A stretch of DNA of 59,678 nucleotides, the filler included. It is 5 parts of 5 records of this genome, joined end to end, with 100 filler letters (N's around TTAATTAATTAA, not from the genome) between each part and the next. Parts side by side here need not be neighbours in the genome. Positions count along the whole stretch, not along the records: positions 48,402 to 59,678 come from SRR22947727_2754; 4 more parts are not named here. One strand, written 5' to 3'. The notes under the pieces are model-generated. The model had not been told where the DNA came from and did no database searches. It was given only the letters and a program-made list of their open reading frames with translations. Made by a program: the position numbers and the translations under genes. Below, in pieces: positions 48,402 to 59,678 of this stretch; the stretch's first letter is position 1; the number at the start of each line of letters is the position of its first letter.

Positions 48402-48402
48402 A

Positions 48403-48422
48403 GCCCGGTGTTGCCACCGGGC
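48403..48422. terminator. GC-rich hairpin, possible terminator cut by the contig edge
   Basis: GCCCGGTG-ttgc-CACCGGGC. Confidence 0.45.
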
Positions 48423-48531
48423 AAAGTGTTTGGCTTGGCGGTTGGGGTATGCAGAGGCCTTTAGTAAGAAAACTCACAGTCACGCCCGAAAAACGGCGCC
48501 AAGACGAAGCGAATCGCGCTAGGGTGCTGAA

Positions 48532-49620
48532 ATGATGTTTTCCTTGCCTGATCCAGATGTGCTCTATAACGCACTTGTCGCCCGCAGTGACGCCTATGAG
48601 GGACGCGCCTATGTCGGCGTGACCTCAACCGGCATTTTTTGCCGCCTCAACTGCCCGGCCCCCAATCCCAAACCGGAAAACTGCACGTTTTTCGAGAACC
48701 CCGGCGATTGTATCGCTGCGGGATTTAGGCCTTGTAAACGCTGCCACCCGCTGGCGCCTGTGGCACGATTGGATCCGCTTGTGGATCAGATGCTGAAAGC
48801 CTTTGACGCAGATCCGATGCGTCGCTGGAGCGAGACCTGCGTCGCGTCGATGGGGTTTGACCCCTCTACCGTACGGCGCGCCTTCAAGCGCCATTTTGGC
48901 ATGACCTTTTTGGAAATGGCCCGTCACCGCCGATTGCGCCACTCTGCCGAGGTCTTGGCCAAGGGCGATAAGGTCGTCGAGGCCCAGCTGAGCGCAGGAT
49001 TTGAATCGCCCAGCGCATTTCGCGCCGCTTTCGCAAAGCTCATGGGACGAGCCCCAGGGGAATTTGCCGAAAATGACCTGTTGCGGGCCAGTTGGATCGA
49101 CACACCCATTGGCGCGATGGTGACCATCTGTGATGCCACACAAGTGCATTTGTTGGAATTTCCCGAACGCAAGGGCCTGGCCCGCGAGGTGCAGCAGCTG
49201 TTTCAATATTCCAAAGGGCAATTGAGTTTTGGTCGCTTTGCCTTGACCGATCAGGTGCAGGAGCAGCTGACAGAATTTTTTGAGGGGCGGCGGCCGAAAT
49301 TCGATCTGCCTCTGGCCTTGCACGGCACAGATTTTTCCAAAACTGTCTGGCGGGCTTTGCAAGACATCCCAGCCGGACAAACCCGATCCTATGCGCAATT
49401 GGCGCAATCTATAGCGCGACCCACGGCCATGCGTGCCGTTGCTCGCGCCAATGGGGCCAATCAAATCGCAATTGTATTGCCCTGCCACCGCGTCATTGGC
49501 GCTGACGGCACTCTGACAGGCTATGCTGGCGGGCTGTGGCGCAAGCAAAAATTAATAGAGCTAGAACGCGCCTATGCGGCGGCGAGCTCAAGCCTCAACG
49601 CGCGTCTCGCGTCCAGCTGA
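48532..49620 (+). CDS. ada: Bifunctional Ada regulator / methylated-DNA--protein-cysteine methyltransferase
   Basis: GIFCRLNC, GFRPCKRC Zn site, AraC-type HTH, PCHRV active site. Confidence 0.94.
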   Translation: MMFSLPDPDVLYNALVARSDAYEGRAYVGVTSTGIFCRLNCPAPNPKPENCTFFENPGDCIAAGFRPCKRCHPLAPVARLDPLVDQMLKAFDADPMRRWSETCVASMGFDPSTVRRAFKRHFGMTFLEMARHRRLRHSAEVLAKGDKVVEAQLSAGFESPSAFRAAFAKLMGRAPGEFAENDLLRASWIDTPIGAMVTICDATQVHLLEFPERKGLAREVQQLFQYSKGQLSFGRFALTDQVQEQLTEFFEGRRPKFDLPLALHGTDFSKTVWRALQDIPAGQTRSYAQLAQSIARPTAMRAVARANGANQIAIVLPCHRVIGADGTLTGYAGGLWRKQKLIELERAYAAASSSLNARLASS

Positions 49621-50568
49621 GGTCGGCACAATCCAAACCTCATCCATGGGCCATTGGCTTTCATCCTTTTGCGCAAACCGCTTGATGACTTCGATCTGAA
49701 ATTCGATCCAGCCCATCCGGTGCACAGGCCCGGCCTGCGCCTCGATCTTGGCATTGAGTTGCCGCAACTTCCAAAAGGGCACAGAGGGAAATACATGATG
49801 CGCTGTATGATAGGGCATCTGCCAGCACAGCCAGCGCATCAGCGCATTGGTCCGCGTGGAGCGCGTGTTCTTTAATATATCATCCTCATGGCTGAGGCCC
49901 AAATGTTCGATCGTATTTTGCAACTGATGCACAGGTTTGGTCAAAAGCATCGGCAAAAGCCAAAAGCTCATCGCCGCCCATGAATTCAAAGTAACAGAGC
50001 CCAAGAGGATCACCGCATAGAGCGCCACATGAACCCGGCTCTCAAGAACGATCTTGGCCTCTTCTTCGGCGCGGATAAACGGCTCAATAATCACCCCCCG
50101 CGCGCGGCGGATCACACCAAAGATGCGATTGCGCCAATACGTAACGCCGGACAGCCACAAGAGATAGGTCACAAGCGTATAGGGCGCGCGCACCAATTCG
50201 CCGTCTTTTTCCCAATCTTGCGTGTGGGTATGATGTGCGAAATGCATGACTTGATCGTAATCTCGTGGAAAGATCATCACAAAGCCAATCAACCGGCCAA
50301 AGAGCACATTTATCCGGCGGGTCGCAAAAACGGTCGCATGGCTCAGCTCATGCTGGGCGGCATAGAGGAAATTGAGCAAAACACCCAAGACAAAGCCTGT
50401 CAGCCAGACCCATGCAGTGCCCAAAGCCAAGCTGTGCAAGTAACCCGCGCAGACGATTGCCCCCAGATGGCTGGCCATTTGCGCAGCCCCCCAAAGGTTT
50501 GAGCGTGTATTAAGCGCCTTGAGTTCGGCTGGGGTGACCAGTTTACGGCGTGAAAACGACGCGTCCAT
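49588..50568 (-). CDS. Fatty acid desaturase-family membrane di-iron enzyme
   Basis: His boxes HELSH, HFAHH, EH, HTAHH. Confidence 0.88.
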   Translation of the reverse strand: MDASFSRRKLVTPAELKALNTRSNLWGAAQMASHLGAIVCAGYLHSLALGTAWVWLTGFVLGVLLNFLYAAQHELSHATVFATRRINVLFGRLIGFVMIFPRDYDQVMHFAHHTHTQDWEKDGELVRAPYTLVTYLLWLSGVTYWRNRIFGVIRRARGVIIEPFIRAEEEAKIVLESRVHVALYAVILLGSVTLNSWAAMSFWLLPMLLTKPVHQLQNTIEHLGLSHEDDILKNTRSTRTNALMRWLCWQMPYHTAHHVFPSVPFWKLRQLNAKIEAQAGPVHRMGWIEFQIEVIKRFAQKDESQWPMDEVWIVPTSAGRETRVEA

Positions 50569-50660
50569 AATTTACCTCATCCATCAGTTGAAACGCAGCC
50601 TAGTGAGCGCTCCAAAGCCTGTCCAGGCTTTTGAGCCGGCGCGTCTTTGGCCCGCACACT

Positions 50661-52538
50661 CTAGCCTGCACGTTCCCAAGACCAGATAAAGCCACCAAGC
50701 ACTTGGTTCACCGCCTCATCTTCAGCGCTGCCACGCACTTGCGCCACAAGCCCGCGTTGTTTGTCCTCAATCACTGTCTGCACCTCCGCAGGCACGCCTG
50801 CCTCTGACAGCGCCGCATTATAAATGCGGGTGATTGCAGATTTGCGCAGCGCAGGTTTGAAGACCTTTCCCACCGCCGTTTTCGGCAGCTCTGGCATGAT
50901 CTCAATATATTTTGGTTGCGCAGCCCGTTCTGCCACGCGTTCACTGGCAAAAGCCACGAGCTCCTCAGCGCTGACCTGTGCACCTGCAACCAGCTCCACA
51001 TAGGCACAGGGAATTTCCCCCGAATGCGCATCAGGCTGGCCAATTGCGCCGACAAATCCGACGGCCTCATGGCCCGCTAAAGCTTCCTCGATCAGGGCCG
51101 GATCAATGTTATGCCCACCGCGAATAATAAGATCTTTGGCGCGGCCGGTGATCCACAGGTAGCCATCCGCGTCCATCCGCCCCAAATCCCCAGTGCGCAG
51201 GTAGCTCGCGAAATGATAGAGATTTTTGTTCTTGGCCGCTTCCGTATAGGTGTGACCTGCAAAGACCCCCGGATTATCAACGCAGATTTCTCCAATCTCA
51301 TCGACATCGCATTCCTGAGGTCCCTTGGGCCCATCACGCAGAATTTTAACGGAGGTATGCGGCAAGGGCAGCCCAACGGACCCAACTTTTTTGAGACCTT
51401 GATCAGGGTTGCAAGAGACCAAACAAGTCACCTCAGTCAAACCATACCCCTCGACAACCTCAACCCCTGTTGCCGCCTCAAAGCGCTTGAACAGTTCAAT
51501 TGGCAATGGTGAAGAGCCAGAAAACGCCGTTCGCAGCGACGAGATATCCGCATTCACCGGGCGCTGCATCAGCGCTGACAGCGCGGTCGGGACGGTGATC
51601 ATAAAAGTCACATTCCACCGCTCTATGAGTTTCCAGAAATTATCAAACACCCCCTCGCCCCGATAGCCTTGCGGCGTGGGAAAGACCACATGGGCGCCAG
51701 AGCTGATCATGGCCATCAATATCACATGACAGGCAAAAACGTGAAACAGCGGCAGAGGACAAATGATTGTGTCCTGGGCCTCAAACAGCATTCGATCCCC
51801 AAGCCAGCCATTATAGACAATGCCGGAATATTTATGTTGCGCAACCTTCGGCATACCCGTTGTGCCACCCGTGTGAAAATAGGCAGCGACACGATCTTCA
51901 GTTGCATCTTGAAAATCAAGTATGCGGTTCTGCTTTGCCAGCTCTGCGTTGAAATCCATGACCTGCGCCGCATGGGTGACGGAGACTTTCGGACGAATGA
52001 GCGGCACGATCCAAGATTTCGGCGGTGTCAGGTAGCGGTTGAGATCCACTTCCAACACAGTCTGCACATTCGGCGCCTGCGCCACCGCATCGGCTGCCAG
52101 CTGTGGCAAATCCGTTTTTGGGAACCCGCGCAGGGTGACCAAGACCTTCGCATTGGTCTCGCGCAGGATCGCAGAAATTTGATCTGGTTCCAGCAAAGGG
52201 TTGATTGGATTGGCAATGCCCGCAATGCTTCCCCCCACAAGGGTCAAGGCCGCCTCGTTACAGATGGGCAACAGATAAGCCACGACGTCATTTTCACCCA
52301 CACCCAAGCGGCGGAATAGATTGGCGGCCTGCACCGATTTATCTCGAAACTCTTGCCAGCTCAGCGTTTCCGCCTTGTCCGCCTGCCCCGAGGTGATCTG
52401 AAAGCTCACACCGGGGCGGGCACCATGACGCGCGGCCACCCGGTCGATAAACTCATACATCGTTTTGGGAACATCACGCTCTGCCCAGGGCATTTCGTTT
52501 TCAACTGCGTCCCGATCAGCTTTAGTTGCAAATCCCAT
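50661..52538 (-). CDS. Acyl-CoA synthetase (AMP-binding)
   Basis: HTGGTTGMPK, GYGLTE, TGD, GRAKDLIIRGG, PKTAVGK. Confidence 0.93.
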   Translation of the reverse strand: MGFATKADRDAVENEMPWAERDVPKTMYEFIDRVAARHGARPGVSFQITSGQADKAETLSWQEFRDKSVQAANLFRRLGVGENDVVAYLLPICNEAALTLVGGSIAGIANPINPLLEPDQISAILRETNAKVLVTLRGFPKTDLPQLAADAVAQAPNVQTVLEVDLNRYLTPPKSWIVPLIRPKVSVTHAAQVMDFNAELAKQNRILDFQDATEDRVAAYFHTGGTTGMPKVAQHKYSGIVYNGWLGDRMLFEAQDTIICPLPLFHVFACHVILMAMISSGAHVVFPTPQGYRGEGVFDNFWKLIERWNVTFMITVPTALSALMQRPVNADISSLRTAFSGSSPLPIELFKRFEAATGVEVVEGYGLTEVTCLVSCNPDQGLKKVGSVGLPLPHTSVKILRDGPKGPQECDVDEIGEICVDNPGVFAGHTYTEAAKNKNLYHFASYLRTGDLGRMDADGYLWITGRAKDLIIRGGHNIDPALIEEALAGHEAVGFVGAIGQPDAHSGEIPCAYVELVAGAQVSAEELVAFASERVAERAAQPKYIEIMPELPKTAVGKVFKPALRKSAITRIYNAALSEAGVPAEVQTVIEDKQRGLVAQVRGSAEDEAVNQVLGGFIWSWERAG

Positions 52539-52642
52539 AAGCATCTCCCAAACTCACGCGCGCCAATCCGCACGCCATGATGGAGGATGCTAAATATTGA
52601 TCAATTTCGCAAGGAATTTGCGCGCTTGGGCGCAGATTGCCT

Positions 52643-54433
52643 CTAGGCACCATCTGTTTGAGAAAACTGCAATTTGGCCAGGCGCGCGTAGAGCCCGCCT
52701 TCTGCGACCAAACTGGCATGCGTGCCCTGCGCTATAATTTGGCCCTGATCCATCACCAGAATGCGATCGGCATTTTTGACCGTCGCCAAACGATGCGCCA
52801 CCACCAAGGTGGTGCGATGTTTTGACAGCGCCTCAAATGCTTTTTGTACCAAAGCCTCACTCTCGCCATCCAGAGCCGAGGTGGCCTCATCCAGCAAGAG
52901 CACCGGCGCATCGCGCAGAATTGCGCGGGCAATGGCAATCCGTTGCTTCTGCCCGCCAGAAAGCATCACGCCGCGCTCGCCGACATAGCTGTCATAGCCA
53001 TCAGGCAGCGCACGAATAAAATCATCTGCCGCCGCCGCCTTGGCCGCCGCAATCACCTCATCGCGGCTGGCACTTGGGCGGCCAAATAAGATATTGTCAT
53101 AGGCGGAACTGGCAAAAACAACCGAATCTTGCGGAACAAGCGCCATGAATTGGCGAAAATCACTGCGCCGCATCTGAGGCAAAGCCACACCGCCAAAGGT
53201 GATATGGCCGGCTTGCGGATCAAAAAACCGCTGCACCAGCTGAATAATCGTGGACTTGCCAGCTCCAGAAGGTCCCACCAGGGCCACCGTTTCACCGGGA
53301 TTGATCGTAAAATTCACCCCATTGAGCGCCGGCTGGTCTGGCCGGCTTGGAAAAGCAAACTTTACATCCTCAAACACCAAGGCCCCCGGTTTCGCCGGGA
53401 TCGGCTCCTGTGGATCGGCAATCGAATCCTCCGCCTCCAACAGCTCAACCAGACGTTCCGTCGCCCCGGCCGCCCGCTGCAGCTCGGACCAAAGCTCTGA
53501 CAGGGCCGCCGTTGAGCTGGCAACAATGGCAGCGTAGATGACGAATTGCACCAATTGTCCGGCAGTGGTTGCCCCACTGCGCACGTCAATGGCACCAATC
53601 CACAAAACCCCCATCACGCCGCTAAATGCCACAAAGATAATGATCATCGTTATCAGCGCGCGCGTTTTGATCCTTGCGCGGGCGCTGTCATAGGCTTTCT
53701 CGGTGACATTTGAGAACTCTGTCGAGCTGCGGGCCTCATGGGTAAAGGCTTGTACGGTTTGTGCCGACAAAAGCGATTCCGACGCCTTCCCAGAGGAGGC
53801 CGCAATCCAGTCCTGGTTTTGTCGCGACAAGCCGCGCAATTTGCGCCCTAATGCCAAAATCGGCCCTAAAATGAGAGGCACGATCAAGAGCACCAAACCG
53901 GTCAGCTTTGGAGAGGTCCAGAGCATCATAATCAATCCACCAGACATCATCAGCATATTGCGCAGCATCCAGCTGGCAGAGGACCCGATGACCGAAAGGA
54001 TCAACGTCGTGTCGGTTGTGATACGGCTGAGAACTTCGCCAGTCATCAATTTCTCAAAATAGGCCGGTGACATGCCAATCATGCGGTCAAAAATGGCCTT
54101 GCGCAAATCTGCGACCACGCGCTCGCCAAGACGTGTCACCACATAATAGCGCAGGCCTGTGCCCAGAGCGAAGATCGCGGCCACTGCAATGGCGCCCATG
54201 AAATATTGATTGAGTAGGGACACATCCCCAACCGAAAATCCGTCAATCACCCGGCGGGCCGCAACCGGCAAAATCAATGACACGCTGGCCGTGATGGTGA
54301 GGGCCGCCAGTGCCAATACAACCCAAATTTTGTAAGGGGCAAAATAGGGAAGCAGAGCTTGTAACACGCCAACTCGTTTTGAGGCTGCGCGCTCTTCGCT
54401 CACCTCTGCCGCTGAATTTGGTGTCTGTGCCAT
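52643..54433 (-). CDS. ABC exporter, fused TMD-NBD (MsbA/ABCB-like)
   Basis: TM region, GPSGAGKS, LSGGQKQR, LLLDEATSALD, AHRL. Confidence 0.95.
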   Translation of the reverse strand: MAQTPNSAAEVSEERAASKRVGVLQALLPYFAPYKIWVVLALAALTITASVSLILPVAARRVIDGFSVGDVSLLNQYFMGAIAVAAIFALGTGLRYYVVTRLGERVVADLRKAIFDRMIGMSPAYFEKLMTGEVLSRITTDTTLILSVIGSSASWMLRNMLMMSGGLIMMLWTSPKLTGLVLLIVPLILGPILALGRKLRGLSRQNQDWIAASSGKASESLLSAQTVQAFTHEARSSTEFSNVTEKAYDSARARIKTRALITMIIIFVAFSGVMGVLWIGAIDVRSGATTAGQLVQFVIYAAIVASSTAALSELWSELQRAAGATERLVELLEAEDSIADPQEPIPAKPGALVFEDVKFAFPSRPDQPALNGVNFTINPGETVALVGPSGAGKSTIIQLVQRFFDPQAGHITFGGVALPQMRRSDFRQFMALVPQDSVVFASSAYDNILFGRPSASRDEVIAAAKAAAADDFIRALPDGYDSYVGERGVMLSGGQKQRIAIARAILRDAPVLLLDEATSALDGESEALVQKAFEALSKHRTTLVVAHRLATVKNADRILVMDQGQIIAQGTHASLVAEGGLYARLAKLQFSQTDGA

Positions 54434-54870
54434 GCCCGCCCCTTAAACTCGTCCACACGATGTATCCGGCTGTAGGGCAACCAACAAGAGGGCGCGTTCA
54501 ATAAAATCAGAGTGTCGCACATTCGATGACCGCAGATAGGCGGGCGGATCATAAGCCGGCGGGCGCGTGCGCTATTGCGGCGCGATCCCTCCGAAAACAC
54601 GCTTTCGCGCGATCAAAACACGTCAAAGTTTAAACCAATCACTAACAGGTTTAATTTAAAGGCTAATAGATCACTAAATTGTCTATTGATAACAATAAAA
54701 AGCGCATTTTCTACACTTTTGAAGACCCATTATAGCCAACTGTCCAATTGAGACACAGGGCCGGAAAGATTTACCCTTTGTTAGCATATTGAAACCTATT
54801 TGAGCAGCGAAGTCTCTCAATTCTTCCCACGACTTCATCTAAAACGACATAGATATTTAAGGACACCACA

Positions 54871-55371
54871 ATGACATATGCAATGAAACTCGCTGCACCA
54901 CTTTTCTTGGCAACATTGACAACTGCGCAGGTCGCGCAGGCTGGCAGTGCAACTGGCACAATGAATGTCTCTGGCAACGTTCAAGGCTCCTGCACCGTTT
55001 CTGCTGTTGCGCTGAATTTTGGCGCCACTACACCGGGTTCAGCAACAGACGCAGAGGGCAGCATCGGCGCCGCCTGCACAACCGGAACAACCTACACAAT
55101 CACCATTGATGGTGGCAGCTCTTTGGTTGATACCAACCGGCGTTTGGCTGAGGCCGAAAGCGAAAACTATCTGGAGTATATCATCGCGTTTGATGAATCG
55201 CGGGCCGTCGACAGCTACATCCCAGCAAATGGTGCCTTGGTCAGCAATGCCGTAGCGGCAAGCAGCGAAGCCGTGAACTACTCAGTCTACGGCCGCGTTC
55301 TGGCTGAAGAAAACAGCGCAGGTGTGGTTGGCACTTACTCCGACACATTGGGCATCACCATCACATACTAA
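54871..55371 (+). CDS. Spore-coat-U (SCPU) domain major pilin, CsuA/B-like
   Basis: Signal peptide, CTV...LNFG, CT.GT.YTI, VYGR, GTYSDT...TITY. Confidence 0.88.
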   Translation: MTYAMKLAAPLFLATLTTAQVAQAGSATGTMNVSGNVQGSCTVSAVALNFGATTPGSATDAEGSIGAACTTGTTYTITIDGGSSLVDTNRRLAEAESENYLEYIIAFDESRAVDSYIPANGALVSNAVAASSEAVNYSVYGRVLAEENSAGVVGTYSDTLGITITY

Positions 55372-55391
55372 TCCGACCGATTAGATCCCTT

Positions 55392-55430
55392 GAGTTGGGC
55401 CCTGGAGATTCCATTCACAGGGCCCAGTTC
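55392..55430 (+). terminator. Stem-loop after the major pilin (terminator or mRNA-stabilising element)
   Basis: GAGTTGGGCCCTG...CAGGGCCCAGTTC stem with G-U pairs; no strong U-tract. Confidence 0.55.
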
Positions 55431-55590
55431 AGTCCACCGTTACTGGCCAGAAATCTCTCTGCTTATTTGATTTTTCATATACAATTTTAATGCCTTACCT
55501 CGGTTTTAAGCAATGATTTAATACTCTTTAAGTATAGCGATACCTATCACTTATCGGCCCCAAACGGGCCACATTTTTAGGAGACCTCCT

Positions 55591-56313
55591 ATGACTGGCT
55601 TTCTGCGCATAGTTTATTCCGCTTTCACCATTGTTTTTCTAGCGACCACCCTTCAAGCCAATTCCACGATTGTTCCCGTCATTGTTGACGTGGAAGCCTC
55701 GGGCCGCGGAGTTGTGGAAATCACAAACCTGCGAACCCAGCCCACGCTTTATAACATCGAAGTCTTGAAATGGGCGGTGGTTGACGGGGTCGACGAATAT
55801 GAAGACACAAGATTATTCATCGTCAGCCCACCAAGTTTCAAACTCCACCCCGGATAATCGAAAAAAGTACGCCTCGGGTTTCGCGGCAAGCGCGGCACCC
55901 CATCGGAACAGACCTTTCGTCTTATCGTCGCGGAAGTCCCCTCGGAGGTGAAGAAAGCTGCGGAAGGCACATCGACCCTCGATGTGACCCTGCGCCATGT
56001 CTTGCCAGTCTATGTTGCGCCGCAAACCCCCGGCGGGCCGAAATTGAGCTGGACCATCACAACCCAAGGCGACACCGCCACCCTACGGGCCACCAACTCA
56101 GGCAACCAGCGGGCCACCGTGGTGAGCGTTGGTCTGCATCCGAACCCCAACTAAGAAAACACGCCCGTTTATGCCAACAACAGCTTGGCACACGTTTTGG
56201 CGGGATCGTGGCGTGAATGGCAAGTGAAGTTGCCGGAAGGTATTCTGCCAGGCAAAGCGGTCTACAAACTGACGGGCTTGAACCAAACCTATCAGCTCGC
56301 CAATCATGAATAG
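55591..56313 (+). pseudogene. PapD/CsuC-like pilus chaperone with two in-frame TAA stops
   Basis: One frame reads VSPPSFKLHPG*SKKVRL...FRLIVAEVP...LPVYVAP...NSGN...PN*EN...VLAGSWREW; TAA at 55855 and 56152, TAG at 56311. Confidence 0.85.
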
Positions 56314-56319
56314 GGCAGC

Positions 56320-59126
56320 GTGGCCGGTATTAAAACATATGTACGCTTATTCTCAATCTCTTGCGGGATCTGGCTTGCACCCCTGGCGCAGGCCAGCACG
56401 ACCGCACCATCAGCCGTCGTGCGAAATGGCATCCCGCAGAACAAAGTGGATGCCATAACCGCGCTGGCCCAGGCCCTCTTAGTGGCCCCTGAGCACTTAA
56501 TGGCGGTGATCGCCTTTGAAACCGATGGCAGTTTTGACCATCGGTTTCGAAATCCAGTGAATGAAACCCTCGGGTTGATCCAATTCACCCCAGAACTGGC
56601 CCAGCGATTGGGCACGAGCCAGGAAGATCTGGGCAAGGCCAGCTTTGAGCAGCACTTACATTATATCGGTCAGCTGCTCGAAGGCCGCGCTCAAAGCAAC
56701 CGCGCGGCGCCGCTCAGCTTGGCCGATATCTGCATCGCACTCATTGCGCCCGATCATATCGACGGGACAGAAACAACACCTGTCTTTACCAAAGACAACA
56801 CCCCGAAATCCTATACCCGCTATACGCCACTGGATATCGACGAGGATGGGCGCATCACCCGATCCGAAATTGACCAAAAACTGCGTGCCTATTGGATTGA
56901 TCTGGCCGATCGCGCCGACCTCGTGCCAGATTTTTTCGACCTCTACCTCAACGGGGAGAAACTTCCATTCTTCTTCTTTTTTGAGTTTCACAATGGCCAA
57001 GCCTATATTGACCCAGAAGATTTTGCCCAGCTTGGCCTGGCGGTCACCCCGCCCTTGGCGCGCCTGTTTGATCTCGACTATGTGGCTCTCGATCAAATTG
57101 GCGGTTTGAGCCTTCACTTCAGCGGCGATGCCACCCGTGCCTATTTCACCGCTCAACCTCAGCTTTTCGGCTCCAGCGCAAAGCGCGGCGCCGGTGGCGC
57201 GCCGCCTGTCATGGCCGAGCCCATCCCCAGCATGCTCCTGCGCTACGACATTACGAGCCAACTGTCCGGCACCGGCGCTTTGGCAGCACAGGCCTCCGGT
57301 CTGTTTGAATATTCAAACGCACATCTACAGGCGCAAGCCAACGCCCGCATACAAGCTGATAGCGAAGGCGGGGTGGAGCTCGACCTATTTGGCATCCAAG
57401 GCCGCTACCACCGGCCCAAACAAAATGCCCTCTGGCGGTTTGGCGAACAGGCGGGATTTTCAGGACCTGGCCTCAATGGTGCCGGATTCACCGGAGTAAG
57501 CTATGTCAGCGACTTTGGCTTCACGCCCAATCACAGCCATTTCAACACGATGTCTTTCGAGGGCGCAACTGGCTTGCCGGGTGATGTTGAATTTTACATC
57601 GGGGAGGCAAAAATAGGAGAAACCATCTCCGTAGACCGCGGCGGATTTCGCCTGGAAGACATCCCCTCAATTGACGGCAACGGCACGGTCTCCATTGTCC
57701 TGACGGATAAATTTGGTCGAAAAACCACGCAAAGCATTCCCTATTTCAACATGCCCGGCATATATAGAAAGGGCGCCTATGAGTTCCAATACGGTCTCGG
57801 CCTTATATCGCGCGGCCGCGGCATCTATCGCGGGCTCTATGGCTCGAGCGTACAGCGCTATGGTCTCACCGACCGGATTACCGCATCGGGGTCTGTCGCC
57901 TTTTGGCCAGGGGGCGCTCTGCTCGGCGGCGGCGCACAACATGCCTGGCGCGAAAAAACGATGGTCAACGCGACAGCCGCCGCCAATGCCAGCGCCAGCG
58001 GGTTGGGCCTGCAAGTGAAGGCCAATCTCTCACCCGCCACGCGGCCAGAAACCTTCAACTGGGGGGCGCAGCTGACCTTCCAAAACCACGCCTGGCGACA
58101 AGTCGGCCAGGGGCCGGAGGATGCGCCCAATTTCCAAGCCGCTATCCGCGGATTTCTCGCGCTGAACTTAACGGAGAAGGACACGCTCTCCACCTCGCTC
58201 ATGGTACAAAAGAAATGGGACACCGGTCTCGTGACGGCTTTCTCCACCCAATGGACTCGCACCTTAAATGAAAAATGGACCCTGTCGGCTCGCGCCGCCG
58301 CCCGGAGCGCAAAACTGGATCTATCCCTCTTGGTCAGCCGAACCTTCGGCAAAAAACGGGTCACGACTGCCAACTCGGCCATCAGTGAAAACGGCTCACA
58401 TTGGATGTTAATTTCTCAAAGTTTAGCCAAAGCGAGTCGGGGCTTTCTCAAACCTACAGCGGCAGCATCGACCAAACAGGTCCGGTCCGCCTTGACGCCA
58501 AATTCGAAAAACCAAGCCGCACGGCCAATCATCAACTTAGGTTCAGCTACAGCACATCTGCCACCTCTGGATATTACGCCCGTCGCGGTGTGCTAGGCCG
58601 CGCGAATGGAACATTTTTCGCAGCGCCAAAACTGGGACAACAATATGCGGTGGTGACCACCGGCGAAGCATCCGACATCCCCGTCTACCTGCAAAGTCAG
58701 GAAGTGACCAAAACCGATCGCAACGGCAATGCCATTGTACCAAACCTGCGGCGCGGCAAGGCCAATAAAATAAGCATCTCTCCAGAAGAAATTCCGTTTG
58801 AATATGACATCACAAATACGATGGTTACGGTCTACCCCTATCCCTTTGGCGCCTCCTTTATCAACCTCTCAACCCGCCTGCGGCGCTCGGCAATCGTGCA
58901 ACTTCGGGATGCCTCTGGCAGGGCCTTGCCAGCCGGAAGTGAGGTCACATTCGAGGGCGCAGAATATCCCTCCTATGTCATAGATTTCGGGGAAGTATTT
59001 TTTGAAGATTTGCCAGCCTCTACCACTTTGAATGTCACAATGGGAGAAGAAACCTGTGAAACAGCCATTAAATTTCCACCAAGCGATGACCTGCAACCCA
59101 CGCTCGGCCCGTTCACCTGCCGCTAA
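56320..59126 (+). pseudogene. Chaperone-usher outer-membrane usher (CsuD/FimD-like) with N-terminal lysozyme-like domain; one frameshift near 58389-58401
   Basis: Signal peptide; usher motifs LLRYD, GGFRLEDIP, VLTDKFGR, RYGLTDRIT; -1 frame continues with TKTDRNG, VPNL, G.ALPAGS and C-terminal C...C. Confidence 0.85.
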
Positions 59127-59577
59127 CGCCGCGGCCGCCCTACGGCTGGGCTGCATTTTGCTTGGCTTGACGGGCGGCCCCGCCGCGGCCGGCGAAGTGT
59201 TTTGCGCGATTGCTTCGTCAAGTTTGAATTTCGGTTCTGTCTCAGCCTCTGCGGGTCGATATTTCGACAGCTATGGGCTGGTGAAACTAGACTGTGAAAA
59301 CCTCAGCCAGCAGCAGCAGAACGCGCAGGTACAACTGCGCATTACTCCCGGCCCGCTCTGCCCCATAGCGGAATATCAGACCGCAGATGGCGCGGGCCTG
59401 GTATTGGCAGCTGATGCAGCAGAGCCGCAGGCCCTGGCGCCGCTGTCCTTGAAGCCGCAAGAAAAACTCAGGCTTGAACTCACGTTTCCCGCACAGTTGA
59501 GGCTGGGTCCGCAAACTCGCGCCGGTGTTCTTGAATTTCAATGCGACTTTGATGTGACCCTCGAGCCCGCACCCTAA
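59086..59577 (+). CDS. SCPU-domain minor pilin/tip subunit
   Basis: Hydrophobic leader ending PAAA, CAIASSSLNFG, LDC; last gene of the operon; start uncertain. Confidence 0.6.
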   Translation: MTCNPRSARSPAANAAAALRLGCILLGLTGGPAAAGEVFCAIASSSLNFGSVSASAGRYFDSYGLVKLDCENLSQQQQNAQVQLRITPGPLCPIAEYQTADGAGLVLAADAAEPQALAPLSLKPQEKLRLELTFPAQLRLGPQTRAGVLEFQCDFDVTLEPAP

Positions 59578-59648
59578 GATCCAAAGCACGTAACAACGCA
59601 ATTTCCATTATACGTTTGTATTTATTGATGGAAAAAATTGGGTAATTT

Positions 59649-59678
59649 TGGAGCGGGTAGCGGGAATCGAACCCGCAC
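59649..59678 (-). tRNA. tRNA-Gly, 3' half only (window edge; anticodon not visible)
   Basis: Reverse complement GTGCGGGTTCGATTCCCGCTACCCGCTCCA: T-arm, Gly-type acceptor, U73 and CCA. Confidence 0.8.

Follow-up and report, generated by a model that had tools for sequence, protein, structure and literature searches.

Why would the outer-membrane usher of a chaperone-usher pilus begin with a domain that resembles a wall-cutting enzyme? The question is raised by a 59,678-nucleotide stretch of DNA (the window, by which we mean the whole stretch analyzed). Its positions 48,402-59,678, which are record SRR22947727_2754 from a marine bacterium, contain four co-directional genes on the plus strand. 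One of these genes encodes a usher in which a predicted lytic transglycosylase module lies between the signal peptide and the usher proper. The fused gene has the following parts.

56320..56397, plus strand: GTG start and Sec-type signal peptide, residues 1-26, with a predicted cut after ...APLAQA and before S (reading of the sequence)
56398..56907, plus strand: lytic-transglycosylase-like domain, residues 27-196 (AlphaFold2 with Foldseek, and motifs)
56908..56931, plus strand: short linker, residues 197-204, from the last transglycosylase helix to the first usher N-terminal strand (model and non-fused relatives)
56932..59126, plus strand: usher body with N-terminal domain, barrel, and PapC_C (Pfam Usher and PapC_C), in which the frame changes at a 1-base deletion

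The signal peptide of the fused protein is MAGIKTYVRLFSISCGIWLAPLAQA, and the identical GTG start and leader are kept in eight intact loci. The codon of Glu67 (gaa, 56518-56520) lies within the motif AFET, GLIQF follows at 56572-56586, and an EF-hand loop, DIDEDGRITRSE, occupies 56833-56868 (residues 172-183), after which the open reading frame (ORF) runs on into FFDLYLNGE. A preliminary description of this DNA had placed the leader (LAPLAQA), the AFET glutamate, GLIQF, the EF-hand, and FFDLYLNGE at positions that all match the ORF translation. It was right about the presence of an inserted module and wrong about its length, which is about 170 residues (27-196) and not about 150.

The 207-residue N-terminus of the window protein matches the PDB entry 9udh, a "lytic transglycosidase", with an E-value of 4.7e-9, and also the wall-cutting part of the cyanophage internal protein 9k2v. 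Among PHROG families there are matches at 1.6e-21 and 8.4e-20, one to a family annotated as baseplate hub, and the domain has no match to the Pfam SLT family (PF01464) up to an E-value of 10. In an exhaustive HMMER search, 1,811 of 1.84 billion representatives were relatives of the domain at E-values of 1e-3 or below. A profile of the 82 relatives that we aligned matches 9udh at 2e-71. The AlphaFold2 model of the module, made from this alignment, has a predicted local distance difference test score (pLDDT) of 92.3 and a predicted template modeling (pTM) score of 0.87. Its best Foldseek match is 9udh (E-value 1.4e-7, TM-score 0.78 on the target), and the next are phiKZ gp144 (3bkh is also among the matches), MltE, Slt, MltF, and g-type lysozymes. 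All leading Foldseek matches in the PDB are lytic transglycosylases or goose-type lysozymes, and the lysozyme-like fold that had been claimed earlier is borne out by the model and these matches.

The module contains a Glu-Ser/Thr motif (E67-T68) and a GLxQ motif (G85-L86-I87-Q88), by which Glu67 is a predicted catalytic-type glutamate. Conservation among the 82 aligned relatives, including the EF-hand positions, is as follows.

Glu67: 80 of 82
Thr/Ser68: 82 of 82
Gly85-Leu86: 82 of 82
Gln88: 81 of 82
EF-hand Asp172: 82 of 82
EF-hand Asp/Asn174: 78 of 82
EF-hand Asp176: 73 of 82
EF-hand Gly177: 78 of 82
EF-hand Ile/Val179: 81 of 82
EF-hand Glu/Asp183: 82 of 82

Because of the sequence matches, the fold of the model, and the conservation of these columns, we predict that the module is a divergent lytic transglycosylase, SLT/GH23-like, from a family carried mostly by phages. 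Ten relatives longer than 500 residues with the domain near the N-terminus were scanned for partner domains; these are PG_binding_1, M23, VanY, CHAP, or LysM, and several of the scanned proteins have weak to significant Pfam SLT matches. Relative to the Pfam SLT cut-off (21.3 bits), a standalone Devosia relative (L006) passes with 28.2 bits and the usher P0022, introduced below, falls short with 19.4 bits. A scan of genome contigs yielded two relatives (31% identity), both standalone proteins of 200-230 residues with an N-terminal hydrophobic segment: one in Castellaniella sp. S9 (L005, 5815-6507) and the Devosia protein, from a metagenome-assembled genome (L006, 5920-6525). The first sits in a Castellaniella prophage, amid ORFs that resemble phage head and tail genes by translation, and may therefore be a lysis or ejection enzyme. 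The second is in an ordinary chromosomal context.

A canonical EF-hand loop has 12 residues (Asp1, Asp/Asn3, Asp5, Gly6, Ile/Val8, and Glu12) and lies between two helices. The loop DIDEDGRITRSE fits a PROSITE-style EF-hand pattern, and positions 148-180 of the 82-member profile match dozens of calmodulin-type EF-hands at E-values of 2e-5 to 6e-3. In the model, a short helix leads into the loop and a long helix leaves it. The loop is thus canonical, as first described, and according to the alignment and profile it is a feature common to the whole domain family. It would probably bind Ca2+ as a structural ion.

The fusion is found in intact proteins. In a word-indexed search confined to long proteins, three proteins of 935 amino acids with Usher and PapC_C domains (P0001, P0003, and P0004) show 100%, 82%, and 80% identity over the first 215 residues. 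Copies of the fused gene were collected from 28 metagenome loci in addition to the window and its nearest genome, G001, and 17 of the copies span the whole gene. The GTG-start ORF is uninterrupted in eight of these 17 (L007, L009-L013, L015, and L017) and broken in the other nine (the window, G001, L008, L018, L020, L021, L023, L024, and L026); some breaks in contigs of low coverage could be errors of assembly. In L009, L011, L012, L015, and L017 the entire four-gene operon is unbroken. The top two matches of the exhaustive search, P0022 (981 amino acids) and P0024 (930 amino acids), are also ushers with Usher and PapC_C domains; over their length their identity to P0001 is only 28% and 34%, and they have the module at the same position. 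In a FastTree phylogeny of the domain, the fused copies and one standalone 167-residue protein form one group (support 0.963), which fits one ancient fusion. Among three intact lineages, the ratio of nonsynonymous to synonymous substitution rates (dN/dS, Nei-Gojobori) is 0.09-0.15 in the module, as against 0.11-0.12 in the remainder of the usher. Judged by these ratios, the module is under purifying selection within the close clade, like the rest of the usher.

The non-fused ushers of the same bacterial family have the signal peptide almost directly before the strand LYLEVFVNG, which corresponds to FFDLYLNG here, and the last helix of the model ends at model residue 169, or protein residue 195. 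From these two observations we place the module precisely between the leader and the usher N-terminal domain, with a linker of about eight residues. No signal peptide of the usher's own follows the module, and the usher therefore depends on the fused leader. The usher-transglycosylase fusion had been proposed in the preliminary description, and the intact 935-codon ORFs, the architecture of P0022 and P0024, and the purifying selection all uphold it. The same architecture occurs in P0022 and P0024 as well as in intact close relatives, and among the close relatives no separate gene for the domain was found. By its sequence record we judge the fusion to be genuine.

Two kinds of database entry were considered as other forms of the gene and rejected. 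Nine short matches (79-98% identity) in close relatives were considered as separately encoded versions; four of the five that were read end frameshifted or cross the junction into the usher N-terminal domain, and they are therefore fragments of the fused gene and not standalone proteins. Four proteins of 873-875 residues (P0005, P0006, P0007, and P0011) lack a leader and start at Met61, inside the domain. We consider these to be start-codon miscalls, by which the leader and some of the domain are lost from view, because the DNA of L007 (1916-4720) has an uninterrupted GTG-start frame reaching 60 codons upstream of Met61 and including the signal peptide. A frameshift close to codon 28-30 explains the shortened form in L008. 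Where the usher N-terminal domain begins, a run of five Phe codons ends in a T-rich stretch (window 56962-56985, residues 215-222, LPFFFFFE), and the database fragment P0013 shifts frame exactly at this tract.

The other three genes of the operon are listed here.

54871..55371, plus strand: pilus subunit gene of the spore coat protein U (SCPU) type (Pfam SCPU PF05229, 82.1 bits against a cut-off of 22.4)
55591..56313, plus strand: PapD-like periplasmic chaperone gene, a pseudogene in the window (two nonsense codons)
59032..59577, plus strand: fourth gene of the operon, putatively encoding a second pilus subunit or a tip protein (from the ORF list; start uncertain, overlaps the usher end)

SCPU subunits are typical of archaic Csu-like chaperone-usher pili. 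The intact chaperone orthologue in G001 (240 amino acids) matches PapD_N with 53.8 bits. The fused ORF of the window, 56320-58596 on the plus strand, has 758 codons, and the true usher continuation lies in another frame at 58401-59126. This downstream piece holds the end of the Usher domain (40.7 bits, above the PF00577 cut-off of 27.1; the upstream ORF alone reaches 18.9, below it) and PapC_C (PF13953, 40.1 bits). The intact protein P0001 scores 58.6 bits for Usher and 37.3 bits for PapC_C (cut-off 27). The fourth gene has no Pfam or other family match, and it is kept 3′ of the usher in 15 of 15 metagenome loci examined. The gene order is kept in 12 of the 15, which are those with contigs that reach all three neighboring genes. 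By its predicted gene content we assign this operon of four genes to the archaic (Csu/SCPU-type) chaperone-usher pili. There are no tRNA genes beside the operon in 50000-59678.

The window copy of the system is inactive, with both chaperone and usher broken. In the chaperone gene there is a TAA at 55855-55857 (AAA in G001) and another at 56152-56154 (CAA in G001), and in the usher gene one G is lost from a GGG run at 58392/58393. The preliminary description had not recognized the operon as a pseudogene with these three lesions. Over 5.7 kb the window and G001 share 98.9% identity, but the damage to each is independent: the G001 usher is broken by a different nonsense change (TGG to TAG at codon 645). 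Only operon remnants are left in G021, the third genome of the genus, where most of the usher is lost. A frame change near usher codon 650 is common to four metagenome contigs (L020, L021, L024, and L026). Position 8033 of L003, together with L002, is among the inactivation sites recorded. In other populations all four genes remain intact, which makes function itself polymorphic, present or absent, in a pelagic bacterium.

The sites of damage were looked up in contigs of public seawater runs (two metagenomic and two metatranscriptomic, contigs only). The intact letters of the chaperone, A at 55855 and C at 56152, are present in all four runs. All three runs with contigs over 58392 have the extra G there; in run X16 there is a gap in cover at 58228-58351. 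At the nonsense site of G001, the run contigs agree with the window. For window 55500-59200, runs X14 and X16, from two studies, gave metatranscriptome contigs of 2.8 kb and 5.2 kb that cover the chaperone and the first part of the fused usher, at word depths near 130. Contigs in RNA libraries suggest that the operon is expressed in seawater, with DNA carry-over possible. The source names of the close-clade protein cluster are Planktomarina temperata or Planktomarina sp., and that of P0024 is Frigidibacter sp. SD6-1; the cluster proteins are all annotated just as "fimbria/pilus outer membrane usher protein". A related usher occurs in 11 genomes of the family sample, and in nine of them it is a plain protein of about 720-850 residues without the module.

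What might the module do for the usher? The self-installing, muralytic, and possibly Ca2+-modulated usher of the preliminary description has the standing of a proposal. We infer the following course of events. The fused protein would be exported by Sec and its barrel inserted in the outer membrane. The transglycosylase module would stay periplasmic on its linker, as the innermost tip of the usher facing the peptidoglycan, and would bind glycan strands. In lineages that keep Glu67 and GLIQF it would also cleave strands locally, and the wall opened or thinned under the usher would leave room for the periplasmic domains and for incoming chaperone-subunit complexes. The module may in addition tether the usher to the sacculus. 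The reading that we prefer is that the wall is cleaved or thinned locally under the usher, with Ca2+ in a structural role; we give it slightly better than an even chance.

Several points weigh against this reading. Residues 1-207 have no match in Pfam or NCBIfam, even when the thresholds are relaxed. In P0024, which sits on a long branch, His replaces the catalytic Glu and GLFGF replaces GLIQF, and the EF-hand is kept; catalysis is therefore not universal, and at least one fused lineage is probably non-cleaving. The repeated inactivation in the window, G001, G021, and several metagenome contigs implies that the operon is dispensable. The operon is also rare. The usher was found in one of 41 related genomes, and the fusion in one of 401 sampled genomes of the family and one of 401 of the class, counts that are samples and mean "not found in those searched" rather than "absent". 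Contigs from RNA libraries are not proof of transcription. Finally, to our knowledge the chaperone-usher pili of model organisms assemble without a dedicated peptidoglycan enzyme, and the need for one is not obvious.

The alternative that survives best is that the module is mainly a non-catalytic peptidoglycan-binding anchor, which ties the usher and pilus to the wall against pulling forces or positions the usher, with any cleavage incidental. The substitutions in P0024 favor it, since that protein keeps the fold-defining residues along with the EF-hand, although P0024 is a single sequence. A weak but consistent sign comes from a related usher of another genus in the same family (G441), whose N-terminus carries an AMIN-like domain at this position in place of the transglycosylase. 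Its gene, on L038 (G441:C164) at 1-2943 of the plus strand, is an open frame of at least 980 residues that runs off the contig start, with the true N-terminus beyond the contig. The N-terminal region matches an ORF on L054 with Pfam AMIN, Amidase_3, and LysM domains (E-value 2.3e-5) and the AmiC AMIN region of 4bin (0.0063), and it has a Pfam AMIN E-value of 0.043 and an Atlas score of 0.90-0.91. This AMIN assignment is nevertheless below threshold, the structure model of the region (from a two-row alignment) has a pLDDT of 55.4 with meaningless Foldseek matches, and a family-wide search with the G441 N-terminus found no second AMIN-like usher. Against a pure binding module stands the strict conservation of the Glu, the following Thr/Ser, and GLIQ in the window clade and P0022, with the Glu kept in nearly all aligned family members, which is not expected of such a module. 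We consider a mainly anchoring role unlikely, if far from negligible; cleavage and anchoring are not mutually exclusive.

A wider reading takes both kinds of module together. Archaic ushers of marine Rhodobacterales would have repeatedly gained peptidoglycan-directed N-terminal modules, a phage-derived EF-hand transglycosylase in three divergent lineages and an AMIN-like domain in another genus, and pilus assembly would need the usher to cut or grip the wall. We hold this joint claim tentatively, at somewhat less than an even chance.

It is very improbable that the domain is a cargo or weapon, for example one released after export against the cell's own septal wall or against neighboring cells. 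Phage tail and ejection proteins with which cell walls are attacked do contain relatives of the domain, but here the domain precedes the usher, joined to it by a linker of about eight residues with no evident processing site, and nothing in the operon suggests an immunity gene. The N-terminus of ushers is periplasmic, as in the FimD and PapC structures, which also counts against release. Hardly credible is the last account, that the fusion is an accident (genes joined by deletion or sequencing error, or a functionless captured prophage lysin fragment): the pseudogenes in the window operon and in the nearest genome's usher, the many fragmentary database entries, and the otherwise largely phage-borne domain family speak for it, but the same in-frame junction occurs in eight intact ORFs from independent metagenome contigs and in two ushers that are only 28-34% identical, dN/dS is low across the domain, the usher relies on the fused leader, and the short "standalone" matches are frameshift fragments crossing the junction, so that on this sequence evidence decay or assembly artefact is effectively excluded.

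In a literature search judged by titles and the openings of abstracts, we found no usher-transglycosylase fusion and no peptidoglycan-enzyme partner of the chaperone-usher pathway, in agreement with the earlier remark that none was known. The fused proteins are already in public databases with the module unannotated, and the arrangement is apparently undescribed for chaperone-usher pili. In textbooks these pili exemplify an appendage whose assembly takes place wholly at the outer membrane and involves no wall remodeling. A conserved and selected usher fusion offers a simple genetic handle on whether the cell wall constrains usher function. If the repeated-gain reading is true, this would be the first dedicated peptidoglycan-remodeling function built into the chaperone-usher pathway, for which none is generally considered necessary. 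The relevance to specialists in pili and cell walls is tempered by the inactive window copy and by a function that is predicted. Planktomarina is an abundant coastal bacterioplankton group, and the polymorphism between intact and broken operons bears on attachment versus a free-living lifestyle. For the domain family there is a solved structure (9udh) but no Pfam or NCBIfam cover, and a model based on our 82-member alignment would annotate about 1,800 representative clusters.

The closest known protein is 9udh, a bacteriophage protein of 164 amino acids of the same sequence family and fold, with FET, GLIQF, and the EF-hand-like DLNKDNAITKYE. It is a free-standing phage protein, whereas here an outer-membrane usher has the domain as its N-terminal module. 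A literature search on the code found no paper about 9udh. The family 1/GH23 enzymes (phiKZ gp144, MltE, Slt, MltF, and goose-type lysozyme) share the lysozyme-like helical fold, the Glu-Ser/Thr pair, and GLxQ. The window domain differs from them in having no Pfam SLT match and an EF-hand near its C-terminus, and the TM-scores are only 0.40-0.60. The E. coli enzyme Slt35/MltB, which belongs to a different transglycosylase family, has a structural Ca2+ EF-hand and is a precedent for an EF-hand within a lytic transglycosylase, but it is not fused to a transport component.

FlgJ, EtgA, VirB1, and the enzymes associated with type VI secretion systems are dedicated peptidoglycan enzymes of envelope-spanning machines and are separate proteins. 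They resemble the fused usher in that a wall-cutting enzyme is supplied with, and localized to, an appendage machine. They serve machines that cross the wall, whereas here the enzyme-like domain is covalently part of a chaperone-usher outer-membrane pore. The PilQ secretins, outer-membrane channels of type IV pili, bind the wall non-enzymatically through periplasmic N-terminal AMIN domains. They too combine an outer-membrane channel with a wall-directed periplasmic N-terminus, and the anchor reading of the module is analogous. Among archaic (sigma, Csu-type) systems, an example of which is Acinetobacter CsuA/B-A-B-C-D-E, the likeness extends to an SCPU subunit, a PapD-like chaperone, and a PapC_C usher in one operon. 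The window system differs in having four genes and a usher with an extra N-terminal module.

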